Source of the DNA: an uncultured Chloroflexia bacterium
GTDB lineage: Bacteria; Chloroflexota; Limnocylindria; Limnocylindrales; CSP1-4
Reading direction: 5' to 3'
DNA length: 64,000 nt
Assembly (NCBI GenBank): GCA_963790915.1
Contig: CAWBQS010000003.1
Coordinates: 552,471-616,470, forward strand
Made by a program: the position numbers and the translations under genes. Shown here piece after piece: positions 13,033 to 30,060 of the stretch. The notes beneath the pieces are model-generated. The model was given only the letters and a program-made list of their open reading frames with translations, made no database searches and was not told the DNA's origin. Position 1 is the first letter of the stretch, and each line of letters opens with the position of its first letter.

Positions 13033-15132
13033 TCAGACCTCGGCGTACAGATGCCGGGAGATGACGTGATCCTGGTACTCGGGTGAGAGCTCGCAGAAGT
13101 AGCCGCTCCAGCCCCAGACGCGCACGATGAGATCGCGGTGCTCGTCGGGGTGCGCCTTGGCGTCGAGCAGGCGGCTGGCGCTGAGGGCGTTGAGCTGCAG
13201 CTGCTGGCCCCCGAGGTGCGCGAAGGTGCGCACCAGGCCTGCGACCTTGCTGATGGAGTCGGGGCTGCGGAAGACGGAGTCGGACAGCTCCAGGGTGATG
13301 GGGCCGCCGTTGCAGATGCGCCCGTAGTCGATGCCCGCGTAGGACTGCAGCACGCTGATCGGACCGCGGAGCGGCGTGCCCGGCGTGGGCGCCAGGTTGG
13401 CCCCGAACGGGTCGCCCCGGTGCCGTCCGTCCGCGGTGGCGCCGACCACCGGTTCCGGCATGGACGCGTCGCTGCGGCCGCGCGCCAGCCAGAGGTAGTA
13501 CATCGCCGTGCCGGTGCCCGGTCGGACCAGCAGACCCGCCGTCTCCTGCTCCGCCTCGCAGGCATCGGCGAGCCAGTCGTAGAGCTGGCGCAGCAGACCG
13601 TCGACCTCCGGCTCGTGGAGGCCGACGCGGGGGCTCTCCTCCGCCAGCCGGCGCCGCAATGCCTCGTGCCCGGAGAAGTCGGCCGCCAGGGCCGCCAGGA
13701 GCTCATCCGTCGCCACGTCGCGGAGCTCGAAGACGTGCCGCCGCACCGCCGCCAGGGAGTCCGCGGCGCTCGCCGCAGCTGCCCCGTGGATGCCCAGGTT
13801 GCGGTACCTGGCTCCCTGACCATGATCGCGGCCATGCTCCAGCGCGTCCGTCATGAGCACGGAATACCAGGGCGCCGGCGCCCACAGGAGCCGCTCGTAG
13901 GGCTCCACGCGCGCGCGCACCTGGCCGGCGATCTCTGCCCGGGTGCACTCAAGGATGGTCTCGAAGGAGGCGCCCGACGCGAGGCCCTCGCGGATGGCGG
14001 CATCCGCCGCGGCCGGGAAGGAGACCGCGCCGACGTTGCCGACGTCCATGCCGCGCCCCGGGATGATGAACTCCCAGCAGGCCGCCACGGTGTAGTCGCG
14101 GGCGTCCTCCAGGTCGTAGCCGTGGGAGGCCAGGGCCGGGATGACGACGTCGTCGTTGGCGTACTGCGGGAAGCCCAGGCCCTTGCGGGTCAGCTCCGTG
14201 CCCAGCTCCAGGAGGGCCTGGTCGGTTCGCGCGTCGATGCGCAGGTTGACCTTGGGGTCGATGAGCCCGACGTCGCGGGCGACGCGCAGGGCCATCCAGG
14301 TCAGCGGATTGACGGCCGACTCCCCCGCCGGCGTCACGCCACCAAGGGTCATGGACTGGCCGTTGTCGCCCTGCTGGATGCCCGGATACAGGTCGGAATC
14401 GCGGTTGAGGGCGATGAAGGCCTCCGCCAGCAGCTCCTCCGCGCCGGCCTCGTCGAGGCGTCCGGCCGCGAGGTCCGCAGACAGGTAAGGCCAGAGGTAC
14501 TGGTCCAGCCGGCCCAGGCCGACGTGGTGATGGCCAGACAGCCAGACCATGGCCTGCATGAAGCGCAGCGACTGGAGAGCCTCGTGGAGGGTCCGCGCGG
14601 GATGGGCGGGCACGTGCGCCAGCACATCCGCCACCTCGTCCATGCCCAGCCGGCGCGCCTCGGCCTCGTATCGGGCGACCAGGGCCAGGACGGCGTCGAT
14701 GGTCTCCATGGCGGCGGCCGTGAACTCGGCGGCATCGTCGTCGCCGCCGGTCAGTGCCCGCGCATGGGACGCCTCCGCCACGGCGCGGCGGGCCAGCAGG
14801 CCCTGCCCGATGGCCATGCCCCAGTCAGCGCAGACGTTGTTGATGATGCCGCCCTCGTGGAGCGTGCGGCCGGCGGTCAGCGCCGCGAAGTCCTCCGCGG
14901 TGTAGACGCCTGGCACGGCCGGCAGCGTCCGCGTGTAGACGATGCGCTCGTCGGGCTCGATGACGACGCGCTCCGCCTCGCACATGCGCACCGTCAGGCG
15001 AGCGCGGCGCATCGTCCACGAAAGGCCCTCGCGGTCGCACTCGCAGATGAGGTCCGGTGAGGCGTCCTGCCGGTAGGCGGCGAAATGCCCGTCCCGTGTC
15101 CGGGCTCGCAGCCCGATCAAGCGTTCGTTCAT
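13033..15132 (-). CDS. Glycyl radical enzyme, PFL2/eliminase-like, unusually compact (699 aa)
   Basis: C-terminal glycyl-radical fingerprint LIVRVWGWSGYFCELSPEYQDHVISR (Gly674 codon at 13111-13113). Cys-loop DYTVAACWEFIIPGRG (Cys352 at 14077-14079, Glu354 at 14071-14073). QSMTLGG motif. ATGA overlap with the activase stop. Confidence 0.9.
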   Translation of the reverse strand: MNERLIGLRARTRDGHFAAYRQDASPDLICECDREGLSWTMRRARLTVRMCEAERVVIEPDERIVYTRTLPAVPGVYTAEDFAALTAGRTLHEGGIINNVCADWGMAIGQGLLARRAVAEASHARALTGGDDDAAEFTAAAMETIDAVLALVARYEAEARRLGMDEVADVLAHVPAHPARTLHEALQSLRFMQAMVWLSGHHHVGLGRLDQYLWPYLSADLAAGRLDEAGAEELLAEAFIALNRDSDLYPGIQQGDNGQSMTLGGVTPAGESAVNPLTWMALRVARDVGLIDPKVNLRIDARTDQALLELGTELTRKGLGFPQYANDDVVIPALASHGYDLEDARDYTVAACWEFIIPGRGMDVGNVGAVSFPAAADAAIREGLASGASFETILECTRAEIAGQVRARVEPYERLLWAPAPWYSVLMTDALEHGRDHGQGARYRNLGIHGAAAASAADSLAAVRRHVFELRDVATDELLAALAADFSGHEALRRRLAEESPRVGLHEPEVDGLLRQLYDWLADACEAEQETAGLLVRPGTGTAMYYLWLARGRSDASMPEPVVGATADGRHRGDPFGANLAPTPGTPLRGPISVLQSYAGIDYGRICNGGPITLELSDSVFRSPDSISKVAGLVRTFAHLGGQQLQLNALSASRLLDAKAHPDEHRDLIVRVWGWSGYFCELSPEYQDHVISRHLYAEV

Positions 15133-15884
15133 GCCACGCGCACCTCGATGCCCCGCCGGGTGAATGGTTCGATATCGATGTTGGGAGGCCGCTCCTCGTC
15201 GTACCCGGGGGCGAAATCCAGCCCGCAGGCGGCGTACTTGCCACCCGCCGCCCGGTTGTAGGGCAGCAGCTGGACCTCGACGAGGGTCGGCGCCATCTCC
15301 AGCGCGCCGGCGATGGCCTCGAGATTGTCCCCCATGTCGGTCACACCCGGGACCAGCGGGATCCGCGCCACGAAGGGGCGCTCCAGCTCCTCGAGAAGGG
15401 CCAGGTTGCGCAGGATGGGGGCGTTGTCCTGGCCGGTCCAGCGCAGGTGCGCCCCGGGGTCGATGAGCTTGATGTCGAAGTAGATGAGGTCGCAGCGCGA
15501 GGCCACGGCGGCGAAGGGTCCCCTCTCCGCGTAGCCCGACGTATCGAGCACGACATGGAGGCCCTCGAGGCGGTCGATGACGTCGGCCACGAAGGCCGCC
15601 TGCATGAGCGGCTCGCCTCCGGAGAACGTCACGCCGCCGTCATTGAGGCGCAGCACATCGGCCTGGCCCATCAGGAGGGCCGCCAGGTCGCCGGCCTCCC
15701 AGCGGCGACCCACCAGTCGCTCGCCGGCCGCTGAGCGCAGCACCTGCGGCTCCGGGTCCAGGCCCTCGGGGTTGTGGCACCAGGCGCAGCGCAGCGGGCA
15801 GCCCTTCAGGAAGACGGTCGTGCGGATGCCCGGCCCGTCGTGGACCGTGAACTCGCGGATGTCGAAGACGATGCCGGAGCTCAC
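15129..15884 (-). CDS. Glycyl-radical enzyme activating enzyme (radical SAM), short PflA-like form
   Basis: GTG 15884 (GTGA overlap with the ATPase stop). N-terminus VFDIREFTVHDGPGIRTTVFLKGCPLRCAWCHNPE carries the CxxxCxxC motif. The GGEPL SAM motif is present. Only 5 Cys in total, so no ferredoxin-like auxiliary-cluster insert. Confidence 0.9.
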   Translation of the reverse strand: MSSGIVFDIREFTVHDGPGIRTTVFLKGCPLRCAWCHNPEGLDPEPQVLRSAAGERLVGRRWEAGDLAALLMGQADVLRLNDGGVTFSGGEPLMQAAFVADVIDRLEGLHVVLDTSGYAERGPFAAVASRCDLIYFDIKLIDPGAHLRWTGQDNAPILRNLALLEELERPFVARIPLVPGVTDMGDNLEAIAGALEMAPTLVEVQLLPYNRAAGGKYAACGLDFAPGYDEERPPNIDIEPFTRRGIEVRVA

Positions 15885-17476
15885 GCTCCCGTTCCCGCCG
15901 CCGTGCCCGGCGGAGCGGTCGCCGGCGCGTGCGAGACGGCGGCTGGAGCGGCGGCGGCCTTGTCGGGCAGCATCAGGGAGAGGATGGACTGTTCCGTGGC
16001 CTCGCCACGGGCGACCTCCGCGGAGATGGCACCCAAACGCATCACGTAGATGCGGTCGCTCATGCTGATGATCTCGGGCAGGTCGGACGAGATCATGAGC
16101 ACCGCGCCACCCCGATCGGCGATGGCCTCCATGAGCTCGTAGAGCGCATAGCGGGCGGAGACGTCCACACCGCGCGTGGGTTCGTCGAGGACATAGACGA
16201 GACGGTCGCGGGCCAGCCACTTGCCGATGGCGACACGCTGCTGGTTGCCGCCCGACAGGGTGAAGGCGGGCTGGTCCACGCTCCGCGCGACGATGCTCAG
16301 CTCCTGCACCAGTGACGTGGCAAGGACCCGCTCGCGGCGGGGCACGACGAGGGGGCCTGGCCCCAGGCGCGGCCACTCGGTGACGGCCAGGTTGCGCAGG
16401 ATCGGCAGGGGCAGGATGACGCCCTGGTCCTTGCGGTTCTCGGGCACGAAGGCCATGCCCGCGTCCAGCCGGCGGCGCATCGGCCAGCGGGTGACGTCCG
16501 TGCCCTCCAGGAGGACGGCGCCGGAGACCACGGGGTCGGCGCCCACGATGGCCCGCGCCAGCTCCGTGCGACCGGCTCCCACGAGGCCGGCGAGACCCAC
16601 GATCTCCCCGCGGCGGAGCGTGATGGAGACCGGGCCGGAGCCGCCGGCAGGCTGGAGGTCGCGCGTCTCGAGCACGACCTCGCCCGGCGTCGCTGCGTGG
16701 CGCTGGTAGACGGCGTCCAGGTGACGCCCGACCATGCGCTCGACGATCTCGTCGCGGCTGCTGTCCGCGGTGCGCAGCGTGCCCATGGAGCGACCGTCCT
16801 TGAGGACGGAGACGCGGTCGGAGATGACGAAGACCTCGTCGAGGCGGTGCGTCACGAGGACGATGCCCAAGCCCTCGGCGCGCAGGCGGCGCAGGAGCTC
16901 GAAGAGACGCTCCGTCTCGAAACGGCTCAGGCTGGCCGTGGGCTCATCGAGGATGAGGATGCGCGAACGCTCGTTGAGGGCCCGGGCGATCTCTACGAGC
17001 TGCTGCTGGGAGGTTGACAGTCGGTCGACCGGGCTGTCCAGGTCGACGCTGACCCCGAGCGTGGCGATGGCCTCGGCGGCCTGGCGGCGCATCTCGCCCT
17101 TGTCCAGGCGGCGGCCGCGCTTGATCTCCCGGCCCAGGAACATGTTCTCGACGACGGAGAGGTGCGGCGCCAGGCTGAACTCCTGCCAGATGACCGCGAT
17201 GCCCTGGGCGCGCACCTGCGAGATGGTCGTCTCGCCACGCAGGCTACCGTCGACGAGCAGGCTGCCGCCCTCGTAGGGCAGCGCCCCGGCGATGACCTTG
17301 ATGAGGGTCGTCTTGCCGGCGCCGTTCTCGCCCACCAGGGCGTGCACCTCGCCCGCGAGGAGCTCCAGCGAGGCGTCGGCGAGGAGCAGGACGTCCGTGC
17401 CGCGGATGGGCCGGCCGTCGTCGTCGTACGCGTACTTCTGGATGTGCTGGGCGTCAAGGAGGACGGTGCTGGTCAT
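15881..17476 (-). CDS. Sugar ABC transporter ATP-binding protein, duplicated NBD (RbsA/AraG/MglA-like)
   Basis: ATG 17476 (ATGA overlap with the permease stop). First NBD has GENGAGKTT, LSTSQQQLVEIARAL, ILILDEPTASL. Second NBD has GLVGAGRTE, LSGGNQQRVAIGKWL, VYVLDEPTRGVD. It is the C-terminal part of ORF 15881..18514. Confidence 0.9.
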   Translation of the reverse strand: MTSTVLLDAQHIQKYAYDDDGRPIRGTDVLLLADASLELLAGEVHALVGENGAGKTTLIKVIAGALPYEGGSLLVDGSLRGETTISQVRAQGIAVIWQEFSLAPHLSVVENMFLGREIKRGRRLDKGEMRRQAAEAIATLGVSVDLDSPVDRLSTSQQQLVEIARALNERSRILILDEPTASLSRFETERLFELLRRLRAEGLGIVLVTHRLDEVFVISDRVSVLKDGRSMGTLRTADSSRDEIVERMVGRHLDAVYQRHAATPGEVVLETRDLQPAGGSGPVSITLRRGEIVGLAGLVGAGRTELARAIVGADPVVSGAVLLEGTDVTRWPMRRRLDAGMAFVPENRKDQGVILPLPILRNLAVTEWPRLGPGPLVVPRRERVLATSLVQELSIVARSVDQPAFTLSGGNQQRVAIGKWLARDRLVYVLDEPTRGVDVSARYALYELMEAIADRGGAVLMISSDLPEIISMSDRIYVMRLGAISAEVARGEATEQSILSLMLPDKAAAAPAAVSHAPATAPPGTAAGTGA

Positions 17477-18514
17477 GTCCGCTCGCCGAGGTAGCGGCTG
17501 CGCGCCGCGTCGACCACGAGGGCGATGACGATGATGGCGCCCATGACCGCCTGGTACAGCTGCGACGGGATGTTGAGCAGGATGATGCAGTTGTTGATGG
17601 TCCTGATGATGATGGCGCCGATGACCACGCCCACGACCGTGCCGCGTCCACCGAAGAGGCTGGTGCCGCCGACCACGGCGGCCGTGATCGTCTCGAACGT
17701 GGCGTTGAAGCCACCCAGCGTCGGCACGCCGATCTGGACGCGGGAGGTGAGCATGACCGCCGCCAGGGCCGCCAGGCCGCTGCAGATGGCGAAGCTCGAG
17801 ATGACGATGCGTGGCACGCGCACCCCGGACAGGCCGGCCGTCACCCGGTTGTAGCCCACGGCCACGACGGAACGACCGAAGGTCGTGTGGTTGAGCACGA
17901 CCCATGCGATGGCCGCCACGACCACTGCCAGGATGACCAGGTAGGGGATGCCCAGGATCAGGCCGGTCTGGAGGCCCACGAACACGTCGTCGGCCGGCAT
18001 CGAGAGCATGGATCCGGCGGAGATCGATCTGGGCCAGGGCGAAGGCGATGTAGAAGCCGCCCAGCGTCGTGATGAAGGCCGGGATGCGCACCCACTGCAC
18101 GAGCACGCCATTGAAGAGCCCGAAGAGGACGCCCGCGCCAAGGGCGGCTGCGAGCGCCAGGGGCAGGCTGCCAGTCTGGATCATGACCGTGACGAGGACC
18201 ACGGAGCTGAGGCCGTAGAGCGCGCCGACGGAGAGGTCGATGCCACCGATGAGCAGGACGAAGAGGATGCCGATGGCGGCCACGCCCAGGTCCGAGGCCT
18301 GACGCAGGACGTTGCGGATGTTGTCCACGCTGCCGAACTTGGGCACGAAGATCCAGGCCAGGACCCACATGATCAGGAGCAGCGCGAGGAGGCCCAGCGT
18401 CGGGTTGCGGCTGATGCGATCCAAGGCGCCAGCGGCGCGGCCGCGCCGCGTCGTGGTGGCTGGCTGGAGCGGGGCCATCGATCCGCCGACAGCCGGCGCG
18501 CTGGGAGCGCTCAC
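17473..18514 (-). pseudogene. Sugar ABC permease (RbsC/AraH-like) with one frame break near 18021-18030 (pseudogene or assembly indel)
   Basis: The N-terminal 160 aa (frame of 18514) reads ...IGGIDLSVGALYGLSSVV...TTLGGFYIAFALAQI. The C-terminal 170 aa (frame of ORF 17473..18141) reads ISAGSMLSMPADDVF...GRSVVAVGYNRVTAGLSGVRV...AVVGGTSLFGGRGTVVGVVIGAIII. The junction lies in AGATCGATCT. Confidence 0.8.
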
Positions 18515-19503
18515 GCGGTCCTCCCGTGCCGGGAGCGCTGCAGGGCGCTGCTGGCCATATCACGAAGCACCGGACCCTGGACGGTCACGAGGACCGCGGT
18601 GATGATGAGCAGGCCGGTCACGAGGTCCTGCATGAACGGCTGCACCCCCTGCAGGTTCATGATGTTGCGGATCGCGAAGAGGAAGATGGCGCCCGCCCCG
18701 GCCGCCCAGAGGTGGCCACGCCCACCGAAGAGGTCCACCCCGCCGATGACGCAGGCGGCTACCGCCAGCAGCGTGTACGGCTCGCCCTGCAACGGGTTGG
18801 CGGTGCCCAGGCGGGCGGCCAGCATCGTGCCGGCCACGGCCGCGAGCAGCCCGGACACGAGGTAGGCGCTCGCCAGGACCCGGGCTACGGGAACCCCGGA
18901 GAGGCGAGCCACGGCGAAGTTGTCACCCGTCGCGCGCAGGTGCACGCCCCAGGTGGTCGCGCGCGTCACGACCTCGAGGATGATGAGCATGGTGACTGCC
19001 AGCAGGACGGTGATGGGGATGCCCATGAGGGCGTCGTTGCCGATCGACACGAAGTCGGGCGGGAAGACGGGGTGCCCGATGACGTTCGCGATGTAGAGGG
19101 CGAGGCCGGCGGCGATGCCCAGCGTGCCGAACGTGGCGATGAAGGGCGGGAGCTTGAGGCGGGAGACGATGACGGCATTGACCGCGCCCAGCAGGAGCCC
19201 GACCGCGAGGCCCACCACGACGGCCAGCGGCCAGGGCATCCCCGAGCTGACGAGCGCCACTTCCACGACGCCGACGAGGGACATGACCCCGCCGACGGAG
19301 AGGTCGATGCCGCCCGTGAGCAGGACCAGCGTCATCCCGAACGCCGCCACGGACAGGATGGCCGCCTCGAGCAGGACCTTGGAGAGGTTCGTCGTCGTCG
19401 CGAAGAACGGCACGAACTGCCCGACCAGCAGCACCACCACGGCGATCGCCACGGCCGCGGCGATGGCGCGCGCGAGGAGCCGGTCAGTGGGGCGGCGGGT
19501 CAT
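18511..19503 (-). CDS. Sugar ABC permease (RbsC/AraH-like), intact
   Basis: 330 aa, ATG 19503 preceded by GGAGGGAGG. Motifs TGGIDLSVGGVMSL, ATGDNFAVARLSGVPV, GGVDLFGGRG. Confidence 0.9.
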   Translation of the reverse strand: MTRRPTDRLLARAIAAAVAIAVVVLLVGQFVPFFATTTNLSKVLLEAAILSVAAFGMTLVLLTGGIDLSVGGVMSLVGVVEVALVSSGMPWPLAVVVGLAVGLLLGAVNAVIVSRLKLPPFIATFGTLGIAAGLALYIANVIGHPVFPPDFVSIGNDALMGIPITVLLAVTMLIILEVVTRATTWGVHLRATGDNFAVARLSGVPVARVLASAYLVSGLLAAVAGTMLAARLGTANPLQGEPYTLLAVAACVIGGVDLFGGRGHLWAAGAGAIFLFAIRNIMNLQGVQPFMQDLVTGLLIITAVLVTVQGPVLRDMASSALQRSRHGRTA

Positions 19504-19571: not shown

Positions 19572-20525
19572 CTAGAAGGCCTTCGCCATGGCCTCCTCGG
19601 CGTTCTCGGTCGTGACCGTCACGGTGCCCGAGTCGATGTACTTCTCGAGCGAGCCCGGCTCCAGCTCACCGGCCGCCATCTTCATGGCGAAGTCGGCAGC
19701 CATGGACCCCATGGCCATGGGGTCCTGGGTGTTGTCGGCCATGATCCAGCCGTCCATGACTCCCTGGACGCCCACCTTGGAGCCGTCGATGGCGAGGATC
19801 TTGACGTCGGTCTTGCTCGCGCCGGCGAGCGCCTGGCGGATGCCGTCCACCATGACGTCGCTGGCCGAGAGGACGGCCTGCAGATCAGGGTTGGCCTGGA
19901 GGATGGTCTCCATGGCCGCGAGGGCAGTGGCGTTGTCCCACATCCCGGTGGCCGAGGCCACAGGGACGATGTTCCCGGAGGCGAGGCCTTCGTTGAAGCC
20001 CTTGAGCCGGTCGTCACCGGCGACCGAGCCGGGGGCGCCCTCGATGATGGCGACCTTGAGGGCCGGGTCGTTCATCGTCGTGACCAGGTAGGTGGCCAGG
20101 TCGCGGCCGGCCTTGACGTTGTCGGTCGCGATGAGCGTCTCATAGAGCGCTTCGTTGCCAGCCGCGATGGGCTGGTCGACGAGGAACACCGGGATACCGG
20201 CCTCCTGGGCCTTCTGCAGGGCCGGCAGGACGGCAGAGCCGTCCATCGGGCTCACGATGATGCCGTCGACCTGCTGGGTGACGAGGTCTTCGAGCTGGCT
20301 GGACTGCTGGGCGACAGCGGTCTGGCCGCCGGCCACGAGCAGCTGCACGCTGCCGCCGAGGCCTTCGACCGTGTCGGTCGCCGACTGCACCCAGGCCGCC
20401 TGGAATGGATCGTTGGTGATGGTCTTCACGGACAGCCCGATGACCGGGGCGTCCTGCGCCATGGCCGCCGCAGGCAGCATGGCCACGAGGAGCGCTGCCG
20501 CTCCAAGGATCCCGAAACGTCGCAT
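19572..20525 (-). CDS. Periplasmic sugar-binding protein (PBP1, RbsB/AraF-like)
   Basis: ATG 20525 with GAGAGG 8 nt upstream. Signal peptide MRRFGILGAAALLVAMLPAAAMAQ. The mature part starts IGLSVKTITNDPFQ, followed by VDGIIVSP and IPVFLVD, as in ribose/arabinose/galactose binding proteins. Confidence 0.9.
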   Translation of the reverse strand: MRRFGILGAAALLVAMLPAAAMAQDAPVIGLSVKTITNDPFQAAWVQSATDTVEGLGGSVQLLVAGGQTAVAQQSSQLEDLVTQQVDGIIVSPMDGSAVLPALQKAQEAGIPVFLVDQPIAAGNEALYETLIATDNVKAGRDLATYLVTTMNDPALKVAIIEGAPGSVAGDDRLKGFNEGLASGNIVPVASATGMWDNATALAAMETILQANPDLQAVLSASDVMVDGIRQALAGASKTDVKILAIDGSKVGVQGVMDGWIMADNTQDPMAMGSMAADFAMKMAAGELEPGSLEKYIDSGTVTVTTENAEEAMAKAF

Positions 20526-20887: not shown

Positions 20888-21886
20888 GTGTATGGTTGGA
20901 CGGTGCGAGGCAAGACACTGCACCTCCTGGCGGCCAGCGACGAGGCCGGACACCTCGACGTCTTCAAGGCTCTCTCCAGCCCCACGCGCCTGGGCATCCT
21001 GGAGCTGCTGGGGTCGGGATCGCTGCCCATCGCCCGCATCGCCAGTCGCATGGACATCCCGCCCTCCACGGCGGCCATGCACGTGGCCGTGCTGGAGCGG
21101 TCTGGCCTCATCCGCACGGACATGACGCCCGCCAATCGGGGCCTGCAGAAGGTCTGCACGCGCAAGTACGACGAGATCTCCATCCTCATCCCGCGCGAGG
21201 ATTCTGCGGCTCATGCCCGCAGCGAGATCAGCATGCCGGTGGGCGCCTACTCGGAGTTCGAGGTGGAGCCCACCTGCGGACTGGCCGGCGTTCACGGGCT
21301 CATCGGCTACATCGACGACCCCTCCAGCTTCTATGAGCCTGAGCACCTCACGGCGCAGCTCATCTGGTTCCGCCGCGGCTACGTGGAGTACCGCTTCCCC
21401 AACCGCGTGCCGTCCACCTCGCGCATCGCCTCGGTGCAGTTCTCGGCGGAGCTCTGCAGTGAAGCGCCGCTCCACAACGACGACTACCCGAGTGACATCA
21501 CCGTCTCCATCAACGGCGTGGAGCTGGGCACGTGGACCTCGCCGGGCGACTTCGGCGGCGAGCGGGGACGGCTGACGCCCGACTGGTGGGAGGTCGGGGA
21601 CTCGCAGTACGGGCTGCTCAAGCGCTGGCGCGTGTCGGCGGAAGGTACGTCGCTGGACGGCGTGCACTTCTCTGACGTGACGCTGGACGACCTGCGCCTC
21701 GCGCCGCGGGAGCCCATCCGCGTGATCGTCAGCGTGGAGCGTGGCGCCGTCCATGTCGGCGGCATCAACCTCTTCGGCCGGCAGTTCGGGAACTACCCGC
21801 AGGACCTCGTGCTGGCCATCGACTACGTGCCCCTCGACGGCGTCGCCGTCGAGACGGCCGCCCCGGCCCTGCTGACGACCGCCTGA
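20888..21886 (+). CDS. ArsR-type winged-helix regulator with a roughly 230-aa C-terminal domain of unknown function
   Basis: HTH segment FKALSSPTRLGILELLGSGSLPIARIASRMDIPPSTAAMHVAVLERSGLI. The remaining 230 aa have no motif I recognise. GTG start. Confidence 0.75.
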   Translation: MYGWTVRGKTLHLLAASDEAGHLDVFKALSSPTRLGILELLGSGSLPIARIASRMDIPPSTAAMHVAVLERSGLIRTDMTPANRGLQKVCTRKYDEISILIPREDSAAHARSEISMPVGAYSEFEVEPTCGLAGVHGLIGYIDDPSSFYEPEHLTAQLIWFRRGYVEYRFPNRVPSTSRIASVQFSAELCSEAPLHNDDYPSDITVSINGVELGTWTSPGDFGGERGRLTPDWWEVGDSQYGLLKRWRVSAEGTSLDGVHFSDVTLDDLRLAPREPIRVIVSVERGAVHVGGINLFGRQFGNYPQDLVLAIDYVPLDGVAVETAAPALLTTA

Positions 21887-21950: not shown

Positions 21951-23450
21951 TCAGACCGCGCCGGCCAGGTGCCAGTAGACCTGGCTCCACTGCACCTCCT
22001 GCCCGAAGCGCCAGGCATCCGTACCGGCGCCGATGGCCAGCAGCTCCACGCCGACCATCGTGGCGAAGTCGCGCATGACCTCCAGGTCGATGGCCAGGCT
22101 GTAGGCCGTGTGGTGCGGTCCGCCGGCCGTGAGCCAGGCTTCCGCGGCCGTGGCCAGGTCCGGGCGGGGCTCCCAGACCGCGCGAGCCACGGGCAGCCGC
22201 GGCAGATCCTCCGGCGGCTCCACGCCGTCCGCCTCGTTGACCAGGAGACGAAGGCGGTTGCCCATGTCGACGAGGCCGACGATGAGCGCCGGGCCGGGCC
22301 GCGCGCTGAAGACGAGACGCACGGGGTCCTCGCGCCCGCCCACGAAGAGCGGATGGATCTCGGCACGCGGCCGCGCGGCCGCGATGCTGGGGCAGATCTC
22401 CAGCATGTGGGCACCCAGCGTCTGGCCGGGCGAGCCGAAGTCGTACGTGTAGTCCTCCATGAACGACGAGCCGCCGGGCAGACCATCGCCCATGGCCTTG
22501 ACGAGTCGCACCAGGGCGGACGACTTCCAGTCTCCCTCGCCGCCGAAGCCGTAGCCATCCGCCATCAGCCGCTGGGCGCCGATGCCCGGAAGCTGGCGCA
22601 GGCCACCGAGGTCCTCGAAGGTGTCGGTGAAGGCCATGAAGCCGCCGTCGCCCAGGAAGGCGCGCAGGCCCAGCTCGATGCGGGCCGCTTCGCGCAGGGA
22701 CGCGCGACGGTCGCCGCCGGGCCGCAGCTCCGCCGCGACCTCGTACAGCTCGTCGTACTCGGCACAGAGTCGCTCGACGTCTGCGTCCGCGACCTCGCCG
22801 ACGACCCGCACGAGATCGTTGACCGCATACGTGTTGCAGGCGATGCCCAGCCTGGCCTGCACCTCCGTCTTGTCGCCCTCGGTATCCGCGACGTGGCGCA
22901 TGTTGTCGCCGAAGCGGCAGACCTTGAGGTGCCGGCCCTCGTGCACGCCGACCGCGGCCCGCGCCCAGGCACCGATACGGCCCTGCACGGCCGGGTCCTG
23001 CCAGTGGCCCACGACCGTCTTGCGGGGATGGCGCAGCCGCGTGGCGATGTAGGCGAACTCGCGGTCGCCGTGCGCCGACTGGTTGAGGTTCATGAAGTCC
23101 ATGTCGATGCTCGACCAGGGCAGGTCGCGCCCGAATTGCGTGTGCAGGTGGAGCAGCGGCTTCTGGAGGGCCTGCAGACCGGCGATCCACATCTTGGCCG
23201 GGCTGAAGGTGTGCATCCAGGCGATGACCCCGATGCAGCGGTCGTCGGCGCTGGCATCCAGGCAGGCCTGGCGGATGGCATCCGGGTGGAGCAGCGTGGG
23301 CACCTTCACGATCTCCACGGGGATGGCCGGCGCCGCCCCAAGGCCCTCGACGATGCGGGTCGACTGCTCGGACACCAGCCGCAGCGTCTCATCGCTGTAG
23401 ACGTCCAGGCTGCCCGTCAGGAACATGATCCGAAGTCCGTCGAAGGCCAT
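21951..23450 (-). CDS. araA: L-arabinose isomerase
   Basis: 499 aa, RBS GAGGAGG. The full length reads like AraA: MFLTGSLDVY, IAWMHTFSPAKMW, LHLHTQF, FMNLNQSAHGDREF, FMEDYTYDF, GAHMLE, GGPHHTA. Confidence 0.92.
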   Translation of the reverse strand: MAFDGLRIMFLTGSLDVYSDETLRLVSEQSTRIVEGLGAAPAIPVEIVKVPTLLHPDAIRQACLDASADDRCIGVIAWMHTFSPAKMWIAGLQALQKPLLHLHTQFGRDLPWSSIDMDFMNLNQSAHGDREFAYIATRLRHPRKTVVGHWQDPAVQGRIGAWARAAVGVHEGRHLKVCRFGDNMRHVADTEGDKTEVQARLGIACNTYAVNDLVRVVGEVADADVERLCAEYDELYEVAAELRPGGDRRASLREAARIELGLRAFLGDGGFMAFTDTFEDLGGLRQLPGIGAQRLMADGYGFGGEGDWKSSALVRLVKAMGDGLPGGSSFMEDYTYDFGSPGQTLGAHMLEICPSIAAARPRAEIHPLFVGGREDPVRLVFSARPGPALIVGLVDMGNRLRLLVNEADGVEPPEDLPRLPVARAVWEPRPDLATAAEAWLTAGGPHHTAYSLAIDLEVMRDFATMVGVELLAIGAGTDAWRFGQEVQWSQVYWHLAGAV

Positions 23451-23752: not shown

Positions 23753-25022
23753 TCAGCCAGCGATGATGCCCAGCTCGTTGCCCACGCGGGCCATCGTCTC
23801 CAGCGCGCGGTCGAGGTGCTCATCCGTGTGAGCCGCGGTCACGATCGTGCGCAACCGCGCGCCGTCCAGGGGCACGGTGGGGTAGACGACAGAGGTGGCG
23901 AAGATGCCCGCTTCGAAGAGCCGGTCGCTGAAGCGGATGGCGGCCTCCGACTCGCCGACCATGATCGGCGTGATGGGCGTCTCCGAGGCGCCCGTGTCGA
24001 AGCCGAGGCGTGCCAGCTCCGCCTTGAAGCGCCGGGTATTGGCCCAGAGCCGCTCGAAGAGGCCGTCCTCTTCGCGCATGACCGCCAGGGCCTCGAGGCA
24101 GGCCGCCGCCACAGCCGGCGGGTGCGAGGTGGAGAAGAGGAAGGGTCGCGCGCGCTGCGTCAGCAGGTCCCGGAGCACCGTCGAGCCGGCCACGTAGCCT
24201 CCCAGCACACCGACGGCCTTGGAGAGGGTGCCCACCTGGATGGCGACGCGGCCGTGCAGCCCGAAGTGATCCACGCTGCCGCGGCCGTGGTCGCCCAGCA
24301 CACCGGAGGCGTGGGCGTCGTCGACGTACACGGCGGCACCGACCTCCTCGGCGGCGCCCGACGATGCCCGGCAGCGGGCAGATGTCCCCGTCCATGGAGA
24401 AGACCCCGTCGGTCACGACGAGGATGAGCCGGTACGGTTCGCCAGTGCCCGGTCGCCCCTCGGCGACCGCCCGGGCCAGGATGGCGCGCAACGCCGCCAC
24501 GTCCTTGTGCGGGTAGACCTGCCGTGCCGCCCTGGAGAGACGCAGGCCGTCGATGATCGAGGCGTGGTTGAGCGCGTCGCTGACGATGAGGTCCGCTTCG
24601 CCGGTGACGACCGGCAGGACGCCCGTGTTGGCCGTGAAGCCAGACTGGAAGACGAGCGTGGCCTCGGTGGCCTTGAAGTCGGCCAGCTCTCGCTCCAGTC
24701 GTTCGTGGATGGCGAGCGTCCCGGCGATGGTGCGCACGGCCCCGGAGCCGACGCCCAGCTCACGCACGGCCCGCTCCGCGGCAGCCCGCAGGCGCGGGTG
24801 GTGCGTGAGGCCCAGGTAGTCGTTGGAGGAGAAGCTGATGACCTCACGGCCATCGACGCGGCAGACCGGCCCCTGCGCCGTGCCCAGCTCGCGCAACGGG
24901 CGGTAGAGGTGGCGAGCGTGCAGGTCGGCCAGCTCGTCGGCCAGGAAAGCCAGCGGGTCGTGGGTCGCGCGCCTGCCCTGCTCGCCGTGCGGCGGGGGGC
25001 CGGACATCGGTTCGCGGGCCAT
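23753..25022 (-). pseudogene. kbl: 2-amino-3-ketobutyrate CoA ligase (glycine C-acetyltransferase) with one frame break near 24357-24360 (pseudogene or assembly indel)
   Basis: The N-terminal frame reads [36 protein letters not shown]. The C-terminal frame (ORF 23753..24331) reads [21 protein letters not shown]...GTLSKAVG (PLP lysine). The junction is in a CCC/GGG run. The start overlaps the tdh stop. Confidence 0.85.
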
Positions 25023-26050
25023 CACAGGCTCCAGTCGAGGAGCACCTTGCCGGACTCACCGGAGCGCGCCGCCGCGAAGGCCGCAGCGTGGTCGGTGAAG
25101 GCGAAGCGATGGGTGATGGCCGGCCGGATGTCCAGGCCCGACTGGAGCATGACGCTCATCTTGTACCAGGTCTCGTACATCTCGCGGCCGTAGATGCCGC
25201 TGATCGTGAGCATCTTGAAGATGACGGCGTCGAGGTCCAGGCTGAGCGGCTCGCTCGGGATGCCCAGCTGCGCCAGGCGACCGCCGTGCGCCATGCTGGC
25301 GATGGCCGTGCGGATGGCGGCCGGGTTGCCGGACATCTCGAGCGCCACGTCGAAGCCCTCGACCATGCCCAGGCGACGCTGCACCTCAGCCAGGTCATCG
25401 ACGCCCGGATCCACCACGTGCGTGGCGCCCATGCGCTCCGCCAGTGCGCGGCGATAGGCGTTGGGCTCGCTGACCACGATGTGGCGGGCGCCGGCGTGTC
25501 GCACCACGGCCACGGCCATGAGGCCGATCGGCCCGGCCCCCGTGACCAGCACGTCCTCACCCAGCACATCGAAGCGCAGCGCCGTGTGGACCGCGTTGCC
25601 GAAGGGATCGAAGATGGCGGCCACGTCCTCGTCGATGCCGGGCCAGTGATGCCAGACGTTGGTCATGGGCAGGGACACATACTCAGCGAACGCCCCGTCA
25701 CGACCCACCCCGAGGCCGATGCTGTGGGCGCAGAGGTGTCGGCGCCCGGCCAGGCAGTGGCGGCAGCGACCGCAGACGACGTGGCCCTCGCCGCTGACGA
25801 TGTCGCCCGGCCCGAAGTCGCTGACGTTGTCGCCCACGGCCACGATCTCGCCCACGAACTCGTGGCCGACCACGAGGGGCGGCTTGATGGCGCCGGCTGC
25901 CCAGGCGTCCCATGACTCGATGTGCAGGTCGGTGCCGCAGATCCCGGCCTTGCGCACCCGGATGAGGACGTCGTTCATGCCCATCTCCGGCTCGGGAACC
26001 TCCAGCAGTCCCAGTCCCGGACCGGACGTGACCTTCACCAGGGCGCGCAT
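25022..26050 (-). CDS. tdh: L-threonine 3-dehydrogenase (zinc MDR family)
   Basis: ATG 26050. Motifs GICGTDLHI, GHEFVGEIV, CGRCRHCLAG, VTGAGPIGL, and the typical C-terminus ITHRF..FEL-like ending GKVLLDW. Operon with kbl. Confidence 0.9.
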   Translation of the reverse strand: MRALVKVTSGPGLGLLEVPEPEMGMNDVLIRVRKAGICGTDLHIESWDAWAAGAIKPPLVVGHEFVGEIVAVGDNVSDFGPGDIVSGEGHVVCGRCRHCLAGRRHLCAHSIGLGVGRDGAFAEYVSLPMTNVWHHWPGIDEDVAAIFDPFGNAVHTALRFDVLGEDVLVTGAGPIGLMAVAVVRHAGARHIVVSEPNAYRRALAERMGATHVVDPGVDDLAEVQRRLGMVEGFDVALEMSGNPAAIRTAIASMAHGGRLAQLGIPSEPLSLDLDAVIFKMLTISGIYGREMYETWYKMSVMLQSGLDIRPAITHRFAFTDHAAAFAAARSGESGKVLLDWSL

Positions 26051-26310
26051 GGACACCTCGCGTGCGAACGGATGGCCGCCATCTTCGACCCACGGCGCTT
26101 CGCCGTCCACTCGAGGGCCGATCGGCATCCTCTCCGCGCTGCCGGGGCAGGCGCAACGGCCGCCGGGTGCGGGCGATTCGGCCCTATCGAGACGCTGCCG
26201 CGGAGGTGACGCTGTCAGGCACAACCGAAGAAGGTCGAACTCCGGAGGCATTCCCCCCTGGCGTCCCGGCGATTCGAGTCGTGGGCACATCCTGGTACAC
26301 AGCCATCCGA

Positions 26311-26337
26311 TCACCGTCCGCGGTCACCGTCCATCAC
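26311..26337 (+). promoter_or_regulatory. Direct repeats TCACCGTCC-N4-TCACCGTCC-A-TCAC upstream of hdrC
   Basis: Read directly from the sequence, 35-60 nt upstream of the hdrC ATG (26372). Confidence 0.25.
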
Positions 26338-26371: not shown

Positions 26372-27010
26372 ATGCCAAAGGCACAGATCCCGTCTCCCCC
26401 CGCACCGGTCGGGGGCAGACGCGCCCCGACCTTCCAGGAGGAGATCCTGGCGTCGATCCCGGCCGACTCCCGCCTGGAGACGTGCATCCAGTGCGGCACG
26501 TGCGGGGGATCCTGCCCCTCCGAGCGGGACATGGACCACACGCCTCGCCAGATCTTCGCGCTCATCCGGGCCGGCGCCCGGGATCGCGTCATGGACAGCA
26601 ACACACCCTGGATGTGCGTGTCGTGCTACCTGTGCGCCGTGCGCTGCCCGCAGAAGATCCACATCCCTGACGTCATGTACGCCCTGAAGGCCAAGGCCAC
26701 CCGGGAGAACCGGGTGCCCAGCCACGTGGCCCCCGACTTCTCGCGCACGTTCGTGGATTACATCCACAAGTACGGGCGCAGCTTCGAGGTCGGGCTCGTC
26801 GCCAAGCACTACCTGCGCCACTACATGACGCGCCTGCCCGGCATGACCACCTCCGGCATCGGCATGGTCACCAAGGGCCGCATGGGCTTCCGGCCACATC
26901 GCATCGTCGGGCTGGAGGGCCTCAACGCCATCCTGGCCCGTGCCACCGAGCTCGAGGAGGCCCGGCAGCGCAGCCTCTATGACGCGCCGGTCCAGGACGG
27001 GAGCCACTGA
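26372..27010 (+). CDS. hdrC: Heterodisulfide reductase subunit C
   Basis: Two ferredoxin motifs, CIQCGTCGGSCP and CVSCYLCAVRCP. 212 aa. TGATG junction with hdrB. Confidence 0.9.
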   Translation: MPKAQIPSPPAPVGGRRAPTFQEEILASIPADSRLETCIQCGTCGGSCPSERDMDHTPRQIFALIRAGARDRVMDSNTPWMCVSCYLCAVRCPQKIHIPDVMYALKAKATRENRVPSHVAPDFSRTFVDYIHKYGRSFEVGLVAKHYLRHYMTRLPGMTTSGIGMVTKGRMGFRPHRIVGLEGLNAILARATELEEARQRSLYDAPVQDGSH

Positions 27011-27876
27011 TGGCCGAGTACCTCTACTACCCCGGCTGCTCGATGGATGGCACCGGACGCGCCTACCACGACTCGATCGTGTCCGTGCTGCCGGAGCTGG
27101 ACATCCGCCTCGCGGAGCTCGACGACTGGAACTGCTGCGGGGCGACCGAGTACATGGGCATCAGCCCGCTTCGCTCGCAGGCGCTCGTGGGCCGCAACCT
27201 CGCCCTCGCGGAACGACAGAAGACCGATCGGGACACGCTGGTGGCGCCCTGCAGCGCCTGTTATGTGAACCTCGCCCGGACGGATTCCTACGTGCGCGAG
27301 TCGCCGGAGCTGGCGGCCACCGTCAACGAGGCCCTGGCTGCGGACGGCATGAGCTACACCCCGGGCTCGATCGCCGTGCGGCACCTGTTGGAGGTCCTCC
27401 TCGATGACGTGGGGCTCGAGGAGATCGGCCGCCACGTCCGCCGACCCCTCAAGGGACTCAAGCTGGCTCCCTACATGGGCTGCCTCGTCTCGCGCCCGGA
27501 CTACGACGACCGCTGGCAGCACCGTGAACACCCGCATGCCCTTGACCAACTGCTGCTGACCCTGGGCGCGGACGTCGTCGAGTTCTCCCGGCGCACGGAC
27601 TGCTGCGGCGGACACATGACGCAGATCAGCCCGGAGACCGGCCTGGAGCTCATCCGCCGGCTGATCGTGGCGGCCGAGCGCAGCGGGGCGCACGCCCTGG
27701 TGACCGTCTGCCCGATGTGCCAGATGAACGTGGACTTCTACCAGCGGGAGATGAACCACCACTACCGCGAGAACCACCACATGCCCATCCTCTTCTTCAC
27801 GCAGCTGATGGGCCTGGCCTACGGCATGGCACCGGAGCGCCTGGGCTTCGGGCGGGAGATCGATCTCCTCGCATGA
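27010..27876 (+). CDS. hdrB: Heterodisulfide reductase subunit B (two CCG domains)
   Basis: YYPGCS.., NCCGAT.., PCSACY; second half MGCLVSRP.., DCCGGH.., VCPMCQMN. Confidence 0.9.
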   Translation: MAEYLYYPGCSMDGTGRAYHDSIVSVLPELDIRLAELDDWNCCGATEYMGISPLRSQALVGRNLALAERQKTDRDTLVAPCSACYVNLARTDSYVRESPELAATVNEALAADGMSYTPGSIAVRHLLEVLLDDVGLEEIGRHVRRPLKGLKLAPYMGCLVSRPDYDDRWQHREHPHALDQLLLTLGADVVEFSRRTDCCGGHMTQISPETGLELIRRLIVAAERSGAHALVTVCPMCQMNVDFYQREMNHHYRENHHMPILFFTQLMGLAYGMAPERLGFGREIDLLA

Positions 27877-27880
27877 GGCC

Positions 27881-28024
27881 ATGGGTCGCATCGGCATCGA
27901 GGTCCCGGTCCCTGATGGGGAGGAGGTCGAGCCGTCCAGCCCGGACAAGCCTGTCCGGCGCAAGCGTGGTGACGTCTGGCTGCCGGCCCCGGAGCCCATG
28001 CCAGACGAGGAGGTCCTGCGATGA
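27881..28024 (+). CDS. Possible 47-aa acidic/proline-rich micro-ORF between hdrB and hdrA
   Basis: ATG 27881 to TGA 28022-28024, overlapping the hdrA ATG (ATGA). Product MGRIGIEVPVPDGEEVEPSSPDKPVRRKRGDVWLPAPEPMPDEEVLR. 39 of 47 codons end in G/C. The RBS is weak (GAGG only 2 nt from the ATG). It is below the ORF-track length cut-off. Confidence 0.35.
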   Translation: MGRIGIEVPVPDGEEVEPSSPDKPVRRKRGDVWLPAPEPMPDEEVLR

Positions 28025-30060
28025 CCGCGCTCCGCACCGGCGTCTACATCTGCCATTGCGGCACGAACATCGCCGGCACGGTCGATGTGGCGGCCGTCCG
28101 CGACTGGGCCCAGGAGGCGCTCGCCGAGAAGGGCGTCGTGGTCGCCCGCGACTACCCCTTCATGTGCTCCAGCCTCGGCCAGGAGCTCATCGAGAAGGAC
28201 ATCGCGGAGCTCGGCCTGGAGCGCATCGTGGTGGGCGCCTGCTCGCCGCACATGCACGAGAAGACCTTCCGGACCGCCAGCGCCAACGCCGGCCTGAACC
28301 CCTACCTCACGGAGCTCGTCTCCATCCGCGAGCAGGTCTCGTGGGTGCATACGGACAAGGCCAGGGCCACTGAGAAGGCCAAGGCCATCATCGCCGGCGG
28401 CGTCTACCGCGTCCAGGAGCAGGTACCCCTGGAGCCACTGGTGGCGCCGGTCAACCCGGCCACGCTCATCGTGGGTGGCGGCATCGCCGGCATCACGGCC
28501 GCCCTGGAGCTCGCTGATGCCGGCTACCCGGTCCACATCGTGGAGCGCGAGCCGTCGATCGGCGGGCACATGGCCCAGTACGACAAGACGTTCCCGACGC
28601 TCGACTGCGCGGCCTGCATCCTGACCCCCAAGATGGTGGACGCGGGCGCCCACGACAACATCACGCTGCACACCTGGAGCGAGGTGGTGGACGTCTCGGG
28701 CTCCGTGGGTGACTTCAAGATCAAGGTCAAGCACAAGCCCCGCTATGTCGTCGAGAAGGACTGCACGGGCTGCGGCATCTGCATCGAGAAGTGCCCGGTG
28801 CAGGTCGTGGACACGGGCTTCGAGGCTGGCATCGGCTACCGCAAGTCGATCTATACGCCGTTCCCCCAGTCCGTGCCCAAGTACCCCGTGCTGACGCCAG
28901 CCGACTGCACCTACTTCACCAAGGGCACCTGCAAGGCCTGCGAGAAGTTCTGCCCCACGAACGCCATCGACTTCACGCAGACCGAGCAGTTCGTCGACCT
29001 CAACGTCGGCAACATCCTCATCGCCACGGGCTTCGCCCCATTCGACGCGCGGCGCATCGAGTCCTTCGGCTATCGCCGCCTGCCGAACGTCTTCACGAGC
29101 ATGGAGTTCGAGCGCATGAGCAACGCCGCCGGGCCGACCGGCGGTCGCATCGTCCTGCGCGACGGCGTCACGAAGCCACGCGCCGTGGCCATCGTCCACT
29201 GCGTCGGCTCCCGGGACAAGAACACCAACGAGTACTGCTCGGCCATCTGCTGCATGCAGTCGCTGAAGTTCGCGCACCTGGTCAAGGAGCACACCAACGC
29301 CGACGTGTACGAGTGCTACATCGACATGCGCACGCCGGGCAAGGGTTACGACGAGTTCTACAACCGCATCCTCAACGAGGGCACGCAGTTCATCCGCGGT
29401 CGCGTCGCGGAGATCTCGGACGCCCTGCGATACCCGGAGGAGGAAGGCCACGAGGGCCGCCTCATCGTCCAGGTGGAGGACACGCTGGCAGGCGCCACGC
29501 GGCGCTTGCCGGTGGACATGGTCATCCTCTCGGTGGGCCTGGAGCCCCAGCCGGACGCCGTCGAGGTGGCGCGGATGTTCGGCATCGGCTGCAGCAGCAA
29601 GGGCTTCATCATCGAGCGTCACGCCAAGCTGGCGCCCGTGGCCACCATGACCGACGGCGTCTTCGCCGCAGGCGCCGCCCTGGGGCCGCGCGACATCCCC
29701 ACCAGCGTCTCCAATGGAGGGGCGGCCGCGGCCCAGATCCTGAGCCGCATCTCCCAGGGCCAGATCTCGCTGGAGCCCTACCGGGCCACTGTGGACGAGG
29801 CGCGCTGCTCCGGCTGCCGCATCTGCAACGACCTCTGCCCCTTCAGCGCCATCAGCTTCGACGAGGGCGCCATGGTGACGCACATCGATCCCAAGCTCTG
29901 CCAGGGCTGTGGCGTCTGCGTGGCGGCCTGCCCCGCTCGCGCCATCGCCGGCAGTGGCTTCAGCCACGAACAGATCATCGCCCAGATCGACGGCCTGCTC
30001 CTGGATGCCTTCGGGACAGCCAGTGCCACCGTCCTGGAAGCGGCGGGGGTGACAGCATGA
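28021..30060 (+). CDS. hdrA: Heterodisulfide reductase subunit A (FAD, multiple 4Fe-4S)
   Basis: VGGGIAGITAALELA dinucleotide fold. HdrA signature VHCVGSRDKNTNEYCSAICC. Ferredoxin motifs CTGCGICIEKCP, CKACEKFCP, CSGCRICNDLCP, CQGCGVCVAACP. Confidence 0.93.
   Translation: MTALRTGVYICHCGTNIAGTVDVAAVRDWAQEALAEKGVVVARDYPFMCSSLGQELIEKDIAELGLERIVVGACSPHMHEKTFRTASANAGLNPYLTELVSIREQVSWVHTDKARATEKAKAIIAGGVYRVQEQVPLEPLVAPVNPATLIVGGGIAGITAALELADAGYPVHIVEREPSIGGHMAQYDKTFPTLDCAACILTPKMVDAGAHDNITLHTWSEVVDVSGSVGDFKIKVKHKPRYVVEKDCTGCGICIEKCPVQVVDTGFEAGIGYRKSIYTPFPQSVPKYPVLTPADCTYFTKGTCKACEKFCPTNAIDFTQTEQFVDLNVGNILIATGFAPFDARRIESFGYRRLPNVFTSMEFERMSNAAGPTGGRIVLRDGVTKPRAVAIVHCVGSRDKNTNEYCSAICCMQSLKFAHLVKEHTNADVYECYIDMRTPGKGYDEFYNRILNEGTQFIRGRVAEISDALRYPEEEGHEGRLIVQVEDTLAGATRRLPVDMVILSVGLEPQPDAVEVARMFGIGCSSKGFIIERHAKLAPVATMTDGVFAAGAALGPRDIPTSVSNGGAAAAQILSRISQGQISLEPYRATVDEARCSGCRICNDLCPFSAISFDEGAMVTHIDPKLCQGCGVCVAACPARAIAGSGFSHEQIIAQIDGLLLDAFGTASATVLEAAGVTA

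Follow-up and report, generated by a model that had tools for sequence, protein, structure and literature searches.

A glycyl radical enzyme (GRE), a kind of oxygen-sensitive enzyme, and its activase are encoded next to each other on the minus strand of a 64,000-nucleotide stretch (the window; G+C content approximately 70%) of contig CAWBQS010000003.1, assembled from an uncultured Chloroflexia bacterium (GCA_963790915.1). The pair is intact and conserved, and belongs to a distinct and widespread family. It would appear, on balance, to be a working GRE system of an uncharacterised family derived from the PFL2-type enzymes, for which cleavage of a C-O bond in an L-arabinose-related sugar is predicted. 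The GRE machinery as such is known; what is new lies in the family itself, in its active-site signature, in the sugar that is its probable substrate and in the architecture of its activase.

The compact glycyl radical enzyme and its family

The following features of the enzyme were identified:

13033..15132, minus strand: GRE of 699 amino acids (aa), compact PFL2-derived family (Pfam, AlphaFold2 [AF2] model, Foldseek, dN/dS)
13096..13122, minus strand: Gly loop RVWGWSGYF, residues 671-679, with the radical site Gly674 at 13111..13113 (translation)
14068..14088, minus strand: Cys loop VAACWEF, residues 349-355 (translation)
14077..14079 and 14071..14073, minus strand: thiyl Cys352 and Glu354, respectively, of the retained CXE motif
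14821..14841, minus strand: NNVCADW segment with Asn99 and Cys101 (profile-profile alignment; invariant columns in the family)

The protein possesses both the PFL-like domain (E-value 3.5e-83) and the Gly_radical domain (PF01228, E-value 1.8e-16) of Pfam. With a glycyl radical domain bearing the RVxG motif, a Cys loop within the 10-stranded barrel fold and a cognate activase, it has the sequence and fold features of the PFL-like division of the GRE superfamily. The first-pass annotation had placed the radical glycine in RVWGWSGYF and the thiyl residue in VAACWEF, and both loops are indeed present in the translation. Its description of the Gly loop as atypical holds in that a Trp at the x of RVxG and another after the Gly are unusual, although RVWGW still fits the looser pattern RVxG[FWY]. 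The Cys loop aligns with the GCVE of PflD and the GCIE of YbiW, Cys352 corresponding to their catalytic Cys, and the CXE motif of GRE 1,2-eliminases and isomerases is found as C352-W-E354. Five non-catalytic Cys residues (32, 51, 101, 525, and 680) are invariant in 45 family members; a cluster among them might form a metal site, and Cys101 might be a second catalytic thiol.

Both genes are under purifying selection: against relatives whose GRE proteins are 77-85% identical, the ratio of nonsynonymous to synonymous substitution (dN/dS) is 0.15-0.17 in the GRE gene and 0.25-0.35 in that of the activase, and a reading of either gene as a pseudogene is rejected on these values. At the same time, the GRE falls well short of the curated families. 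It scores 304 bits with TIGR01774 (PFL2-3, PFL2/glycerol dehydratase; cut-off 678) and 133-258 bits with the NCBIfam equivalogs for PflD/YbiW, CutC, HypD, HpsG/HpfG, IAD, and HPAD (cut-offs 1000-1150).

The family was delimited by scanning one genome per species for family-specific peptide patterns and confirming the matches with tblastn. At least 599 stretches matched the patterns and at least 536 were confirmed, the best 80 loci all coming from metagenome-assembled genomes (MAGs). The inspected loci are mostly from Chloroflexota, the closest of these (77-84% identity) being labelled Chloroflexia or Limnocylindrales, and others are from Planctomycetota, Verrucomicrobiota, Kiritimatiellaeota, Lentisphaerae, Acidobacteriota, Treponemataceae, Armatimonadota, Synergistaceae, Bacteroidota, Bacillota, and Melainabacteria. 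The labels of these closest loci agree with a probable origin of the window in a Limnocylindria-like Chloroflexota genome. Metagenomes contain more than 100 close homologs of the GRE (694-699 aa, 62-85% identical), which, if named at all, carry the generic name 'pyruvate formate-lyase'. A search of sequencing runs detected near-identical DNA in metagenomes of wastewater, freshwater sediment, soil and peat; these matches are partial (up to 0.42 of sampled words), are confined to DNA metagenomes and provide no evidence of expression.

Both loops are essentially invariant in the family. All 84 loci have VAACWEF[IL] and 80 of them VRVWGWSGYF, and about 30 full-length representatives of clusters formed at 50% identity share both, down to approximately 36% identity. 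RVWGW and CWE are found together in 24/24 cluster representatives of 641-709 aa. A wider clade (median length 723 aa) has RVWGF, usually with CWE, and in the canonical long enzymes RV[ASTG]G[YFW] is combined with C[VIL]E. The suggestion made from the sequence that the pair represents a distinct lineage is thus borne out: the GRE misses every curated cut-off, its loops are kept in 80-84 of the 84 loci to about 36% identity, and a short activase lies beside it in nearly all loci with sufficient flanking sequence.

Compared with E. coli PflD (765 aa) and YbiW (810 aa), the GRE is shorter by 66 aa and 111 aa, respectively; it is thus compact as had been proposed, the original figure of 100-150 aa being somewhat high against these nearest relatives. 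Relative to PflD it lacks 41 aa in total from segment 73-116, 15 aa at 136-150, 11 aa at 217-227 and two short stretches of 5 aa each. From residue 159 onward the two proteins are collinear, and a 10-residue insertion (553-562) is private to the window GRE. Judged from these missing segments, the compaction is therefore mostly N-terminal. The AF2 model (mean pLDDT 83.8, pTM 0.87) matches solved PFL2-type GREs almost equally well in Foldseek, with query TM-scores (TMq) of 0.82-0.85; PflD (8yjo) ranks highest, followed by CutC, propanediol dehydratase (PD) and glycerol dehydratase (GD). PflD, a sugar C-O lyase, is hence the closest solved structure (TMq 0.84), and it is also the top sequence match (245 bits, 27% identity).

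A further feature of the active site concerns Asn99, which is invariant in the family. In an hhalign comparison of the family with 24 canonical PFL2-type sequences, this residue falls on a near-invariant His column, represented by His165 of YbiW and equated by numbering only with the general acid His164 of GD; an invariant Cys (Cys101) follows two residues later. Asn99 thus probably, though not certainly, stands where PFL2-type enzymes have their active-site His. The general-acid His expected of a GD/PD-type dehydratase is accordingly not seen, as judged by alignment and numbering in a part of the model of low local confidence. Because Asn99 probably replaces this His and Trp residues (Trp353, Trp673 and Trp675) flank both radical residues, the change argues for a leaving group or substrate unlike those of the known dehydratases.

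An activase without the ferredoxin-like domain

The features of the activase are as follows:

15129..15884, minus strand: GRE-activating radical S-adenosylmethionine (SAM) enzyme, 251 aa, single domain (Pfam Radical_SAM and Fer4_12, TIGR02494)
15777..15800, minus strand: CPLRCAWC, residues 29-36, the CX3CX2C motif for the radical SAM [4Fe-4S] cluster, with C29, C33, and C36 invariant
15639..15776, minus strand: Cys-free linker of 46 aa at the site of the ferredoxin-like insert of PFL2-type activases (motif spacing)

The gene starts with GTG. Besides the three Cys of the cluster motif, the protein has only Cys131 and Cys220, which are unconserved among relatives; the cluster and the two scattered Cys had been noted correctly from the sequence, with a length of 252 aa that is one residue too long. 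The activase passes TIGR02494 (PFLE_PFLC, PFL2-type activases) with 200.2 bits against a cut-off of 174.35, and does not reach the PflA equivalog TIGR02493 (149.3 bits, cut-off 231.75). Its match to TIGR02494 is in two parts, split where the ferredoxin-like insert belongs. This insert, which in TIGR02494 activases has up to 8 Cys for auxiliary clusters, is absent. Measured as the stretch between CX3CX2C and GGxTxSGGE, the region compares as follows:

Window activase: 46 aa, 0 Cys
PflA: 34 aa, 0 Cys
PflC: 64 aa, 4 Cys
YbiY: 92 aa, 6 Cys

In the AF2 model (pLDDT 94.7) the activase is a single domain, with a beta-hairpin at residues 47-58 where the insert is missing, and its top Foldseek match is PflA (3cb8, TMq 0.85, root-mean-square deviation 2.3 A). 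The earlier view of the activase as PflA-like is therefore right for its architecture only, since its sequence assigns it to the PFL2-type activase family. A protein that passes TIGR02494 and fails PflA, yet has a PflA-like fold, must have lost the ferredoxin-like domain secondarily.

HMM searches of stop-to-stop translations were used to find the activases in the loci of relatives. In nearly every locus with enough flanking sequence an activase adjoins the GRE, mostly directly upstream, and directly downstream in Acidobacteriota. Four loci (L024, L047, L058, and L068) have no activase within the available flanks (1.7-8 kb upstream), which implies that these genomes have it at another site or share one. 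In 62 loci the linker measures 46 aa and contains 0-1 Cys, and in four more it measures 44-45 aa. Inserts of 76-86 aa with 8-9 Cys occur in just three loci, L083 (Prolixibacteraceae), L084 (Bacillota), and L086 (Limiplasma). It had been reasoned that the combination would be unremarkable if such activases were the normal partners of such enzymes. Within the family the short activase is the normal partner, which makes the pair a family trait, and the pair is not thereby ordinary.

The three long-insert loci are among the five most divergent members (GRE 44-46% identical). In a simple neighbour-joining (NJ) tree without support values they share a basal subclade with the short-linker loci L085 and L087, while the crown clade is short-linker throughout. 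The outgroup activases (PflC, YbiY, and that of locus L088) are Cys-rich, the exception being the activase of P0319 (locus L089). Since the long-insert members are basal and the outgroups Cys-rich, the loss of the ferredoxin-like domain took place inside this family, probably in more than one event. The long-insert members carry the identical VRVWGWSGYF, so that the unusual Gly loop is not a consequence of this loss.

The vast majority of GRE activases possess the ferredoxin-like domain, the function of which is unknown (PMC13450708). The expectation that activases of eliminase-type GREs normally have this insert is in keeping with that 2026 review, which gives only the activating enzymes (AEs) of pyruvate formate-lyase (PFL-AE) and of ribonucleotide reductase of class III (RNR-AE) as lacking it. 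The compact GRE family is a third case of a domain-lacking activase, beyond those covered there.

Genetic context and predicted role

On the minus strand of the window, the gene order is sugar-binding protein, two BPD_transp_2 permeases, duplicated-domain ATPase, activase and GRE. The neighbouring genes are:

15881..17476, minus strand: CUT2 ATP-binding cassette (ABC) transporter ATPase (Pfam ABC_tran twice; best NCBIfam match AraG, 472 bits, under cut-off)
17473..18514, minus strand: second CUT2 permease, interrupted by a frameshift near 18010 (its N- and C-terminal halves each match BPD_transp_2, in different frames)
18511..19503, minus strand: first CUT2 permease (BPD_transp_2; best NCBIfam match AraH)
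19572..20525, minus strand: periplasmic sugar-binding protein (Peripla_BP_4; likely start MRRFGIL at 20525, open reading frame to 20846)
20888..21886, plus strand: divergent HTH_20/ArsR-type regulator (domain match)
21951..23450, minus strand: L-arabinose isomerase AraA (NCBIfam equivalog, 733 bits against a cut-off of 622; Pfam AraA_N, AraA_central, Arabinose_Iso_C)

The ATPase TGA overlaps the activase GTG (GTGA), the activase TGA overlaps the GRE ATG (ATGA), and permease and ATPase overlap likewise; these shared stop and start codons indicate that permease, ATPase, activase and GRE are translationally coupled. When the window was searched for genes of the araB, araD, URO-D, corrinoid-protein, GH51 and GH127 types, none was found.

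Further upstream there is a kbl-like aminotransferase gene (2-amino-3-ketobutyrate CoA ligase type), with a frameshift near 24400, beside a gene that passes as L-threonine 3-dehydrogenase (23753..25030 and 25022..26314, both minus strand). Since two frameshifts fall within 7 kb and the GRE genes of the family loci L069, L074, and L080 are also split, indels introduced during long-read MAG assembly are a more likely cause than pseudogene formation. Both permeases are intact in the closest relatives, for example L078. Also present, at 26372..31696 on the plus strand, are HdrC-, HdrB-, and HdrA-like genes followed by a hydrogenase small-subunit-like gene, which fits an anaerobic or facultatively anaerobic host.

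Across the family, neighbours were counted over the 84 loci and distances over the 59 large loci. The recurrent neighbours are:

CUT2 permeases: 39 loci
LacI regulators: 29 loci
URO-D/MtaA-like methyltransferases: 25 loci, 67 copies, usually three in a row
Corrinoid protein: 17 loci
AraA: 16 loci
GH51/GH127 arabinofuranosidases: 16 loci
Zn-dependent dehydrogenases: 13 loci
Class II aldolase-family proteins: 12 loci

Sugar transporters of the major facilitator superfamily (MFS) and FGGY kinases recur too. Within 10 kb, 25/59 large loci have AraA or a GH51/GH127 arabinofuranosidase and 39/59 a sugar transporter, far above the roughly estimated 1-4% for a random 22-kb stretch. The class II aldolase-family proteins of L004 and L048 (Chloroflexota, Anaerolineae-type) pass as L-ribulose-5-phosphate 4-epimerase and the kinase of L004 as ribulokinase, so that L004 has bona fide araA, araB and araD beside the pair, with homologous neighbours recurring in related loci. 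The family loci are thus loci of sugar catabolism, chiefly arabinose-related.

Two other gene sets were observed. In L001 (4218..8205), L004 (4222..8198) and about 25 more loci, as in many Anaerolineae-type Chloroflexota genomes, the sugar transporter and the activase-GRE pair are separated by URO-D/MtaA-like genes, typically three in tandem, and by a gene for an MtgC/MtbC-like corrinoid protein, and this looks like an O- or N-demethylase set within a sugar operon. In L002 (4627..8018), from a Kiritimatiellaeota MAG, the pair is beside two GFO_IDH_MocA oxidoreductases and an AP_endonuc_2 protein (xylose-isomerase-like), with cupin and URO-D genes downstream. GFO_IDH_MocA and AP_endonuc_2 genes together are typical of 3-keto-sugar or inositol-type pathways.

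From its family membership, the activase would bind one [4Fe-4S] cluster through CPLRCAWC, cleave SAM and take a hydrogen atom from Gly674, so that the radical would pass from SAM by way of the 5'-deoxyadenosyl radical to Gly674, then to Cys352 and to the substrate. The thiyl radical of Cys352 would take a hydrogen from a hydroxylated substrate, with Glu354 potentially acting as base. The CXE motif is common to all characterised C-O eliminases and GRE isomerases, its Glu forming a hydrogen bond with the substrate (PMC13450708), and because this motif and the fold are retained, the predicted outcome is C-O cleavage, by 1,2-elimination or by ring-opening isomerisation. The activase itself may be regarded as a descendant of ferredoxin-domain activases. 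As the pair is distal in an operon with a CUT2 monosaccharide ABC importer and near L-arabinose isomerase, it most likely serves in the anaerobic processing of a free (unphosphorylated) L-arabinose-related sugar or conjugate and feed the AraA/AraB/AraD route.

Several observations weigh against this assignment. No sugar gene is nearby in 12/59 large loci, and the neighbours include URO-D/corrinoid methyltransferases in 25 loci and GFO/AP_endonuc_2 oxidoreductase sets in others. One permease gene of the window is frameshifted. The match of Asn99 to the His column is a profile alignment in a part of the model with a pLDDT of 55 (residues 91-100), and the basal placing of the long-insert activases depends on the unsupported NJ tree. 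Moreover, araBAD is complete where present and L-arabinose itself needs no radical step. For this last reason an arabinose-related derivative or conjugate, imported unphosphorylated and with its product passing to central metabolism, is the more likely substrate in view of the genetic context.

Other reactions can also be considered. The conserved CXE motif, the presence of GD and PD among the best structural matches and the Zn-dependent alcohol dehydrogenases in 13 loci would all suit a dehydratase of small diols (ethylene glycol, 1,2-propanediol or glycerol from downstream of pentose cleavage), the Trp residues narrowing its pocket for a C2 or C3 substrate. This is nevertheless improbable, given that Asn99 is aligned to the residue that serves GD and PD as general-acid His, that the pair is co-transcribed with a sugar importer and that genes for microcompartment shells and aldehyde dehydrogenases are not among the recurrent neighbours. 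In addition, the class II aldolase-family neighbours that were scored pass as L-ribulose-5-phosphate 4-epimerases, not as cleaving aldolases, and the kinase as a ribulokinase; there is therefore no evident local source of glycolaldehyde or lactaldehyde. There is likewise only a slim chance that the enzyme is a PflD/YbiW-like ring-opening lyase for an anhydro-pentitol or anhydro-hexitol that enters unphosphorylated through the ABC system. PflD is indeed its top match in sequence and fold, and the CXE motif and sugar context are common to both, yet the GRE scores only 258 bits against the PflD equivalog cut-off of 1109, genes of the phosphotransferase system (PTS) and aldolase partners are not nearby, and the His of YbiW and most PFL2 enzymes is Asn in the compact family. 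Nor is any abundant anhydro-pentitol known with a link to arabinan. The URO-D/MtaA-like genes, usually with a corrinoid protein, directly upstream of the pair in many Anaerolineae-type Chloroflexota loci raise the idea that the GRE cleaves a sugar methyl ether or other conjugate (for example O-methylated pentoses or hexoses) together with the corrinoid methyltransferases. Such a role seems doubtful: neither the window nor most non-Chloroflexota loci have this set, demethylation by corrinoid systems requires no GRE, and an MtaB-type methanol methyltransferase was not seen.

GH127 enzymes act on hydroxyproline-linked arabinosides. Genes for GH127 beta-L-arabinofuranosidases recur near the pair, as do M24 peptidase, transglutaminase-like and alpha-galactosidase-like genes, and HypD is itself a GRE eliminase with CXE, so that a lyase for the hydroxyproline-O-arabinosides of plant extensins, eliminating the arabinosyl group in a HypD-like manner, may also be imagined. 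Its probability is lower still, for the GRE scores 229 bits against the HypD cut-off of 1100, the binding protein is of the monosaccharide type (Peripla_BP_4) and a pyrroline-5-carboxylate reductase was not noted nearby. The database names would have the enzyme be a true pyruvate formate-lyase with its PflA: relatives are called 'pyruvate-formate lyase' in their sources, and the activase has PflA architecture. This is extremely improbable. The GRE scores 45.8 bits with TIGR01255 (pyruvate formate-lyase, cut-off 994), its loop reads A-C-W-E in place of the Cys-Cys pair of PFL, and the activase fails the PflA cut-off; by these scores and this loop it is the only one of the alternatives to be ruled out.

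Significance and comparison with known systems

A search of the accessible literature found no characterised GRE with these loops and no paper that links a GRE to arabinose loci or describes the family, and nothing relevant was found on GREs in connection with corrinoid methyltransferases, Anaerolineae or methylated sugars. Functions are given to GREs one clade at a time, and whole clades of them are still unannotated (PMC13450708). The present clade occurs widely among uncultured anaerobes from soil, peat, sediment and wastewater, in loci for one of the most abundant plant pentoses, so that its reaction may be a missing step in the anaerobic degradation of plant polymers. Close relatives that differ only in the ferredoxin-like domain of their activases amount to a natural experiment on the function of that domain, and a compact single-cluster activase may ease the activation bottleneck which limits GRE biochemistry. 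It may tentatively be put forward that the family is the first of GREs acting directly on a free pentose or pentose conjugate of plant arabinans or extensins, and that its activase shows by natural example that PFL2-type activases can dispense with the ferredoxin-like domain. If so, the former would add a new radical step to anaerobic carbon turnover linked to arabinose in soils, sediments and wastewater, and the latter would offer a small and tractable activase.

Like the compact family, PflD and YbiW, the C-O lyases of 1,5-anhydromannitol-6-phosphate and 1,5-anhydroglucitol-6-phosphate ('GRE isomerases'), have the PFL2-type barrel, the CXE loop and a sugar-catabolic context. They differ from it in being only 27% identical (PflD) and 66-111 residues longer, in their loops (RVAGYS, GCVE/GCIE) and in having His where the compact family has Asn99. 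Their substrates are PTS-phosphorylated, and their activases PflC and YbiY have Cys-rich inserts, with 4 and 6 Cys, respectively. The B12-independent dehydratases GD and PD also share the CXE motif and the fold (TMq 0.82-0.83). However, the position of their His164/166 is Asn in the compact family (with GD His164 equated by numbering only), their activases carry the ferredoxin-like domain and, unlike them, the compact family is without nearby aldehyde-handling or microcompartment genes. The window activase resembles PflA in its single radical SAM domain with one CX3CX2C motif and in its superposition on 3cb8 (2.3 A), and differs from it in sequence (26-29% identity), in its linker (46 aa compared with 34 aa) and in a partner which is not PFL.

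Another related group is the wider, uncharacterised RVWGFS / [AG]CWE[PI] clade (664-765 aa, 29-37% identity), which also has Trp before the radical Gly and often CWE. Unlike the compact family, it is found in loci of polysaccharide biosynthesis with glycosyltransferases and a flippase, which are not catabolic. Examples are L088 (1641..4761) and L089 (6001..8896), where RVWGFS/ACWEP GREs of 708-742 aa lie beside glycosyltransferases, a Polysacc_synt flippase and a pyruvyl transferase, the L089 activase likewise being without a Cys-rich insert. This arrangement hints that the GREs of the wider clade modify sugars during glycan synthesis.

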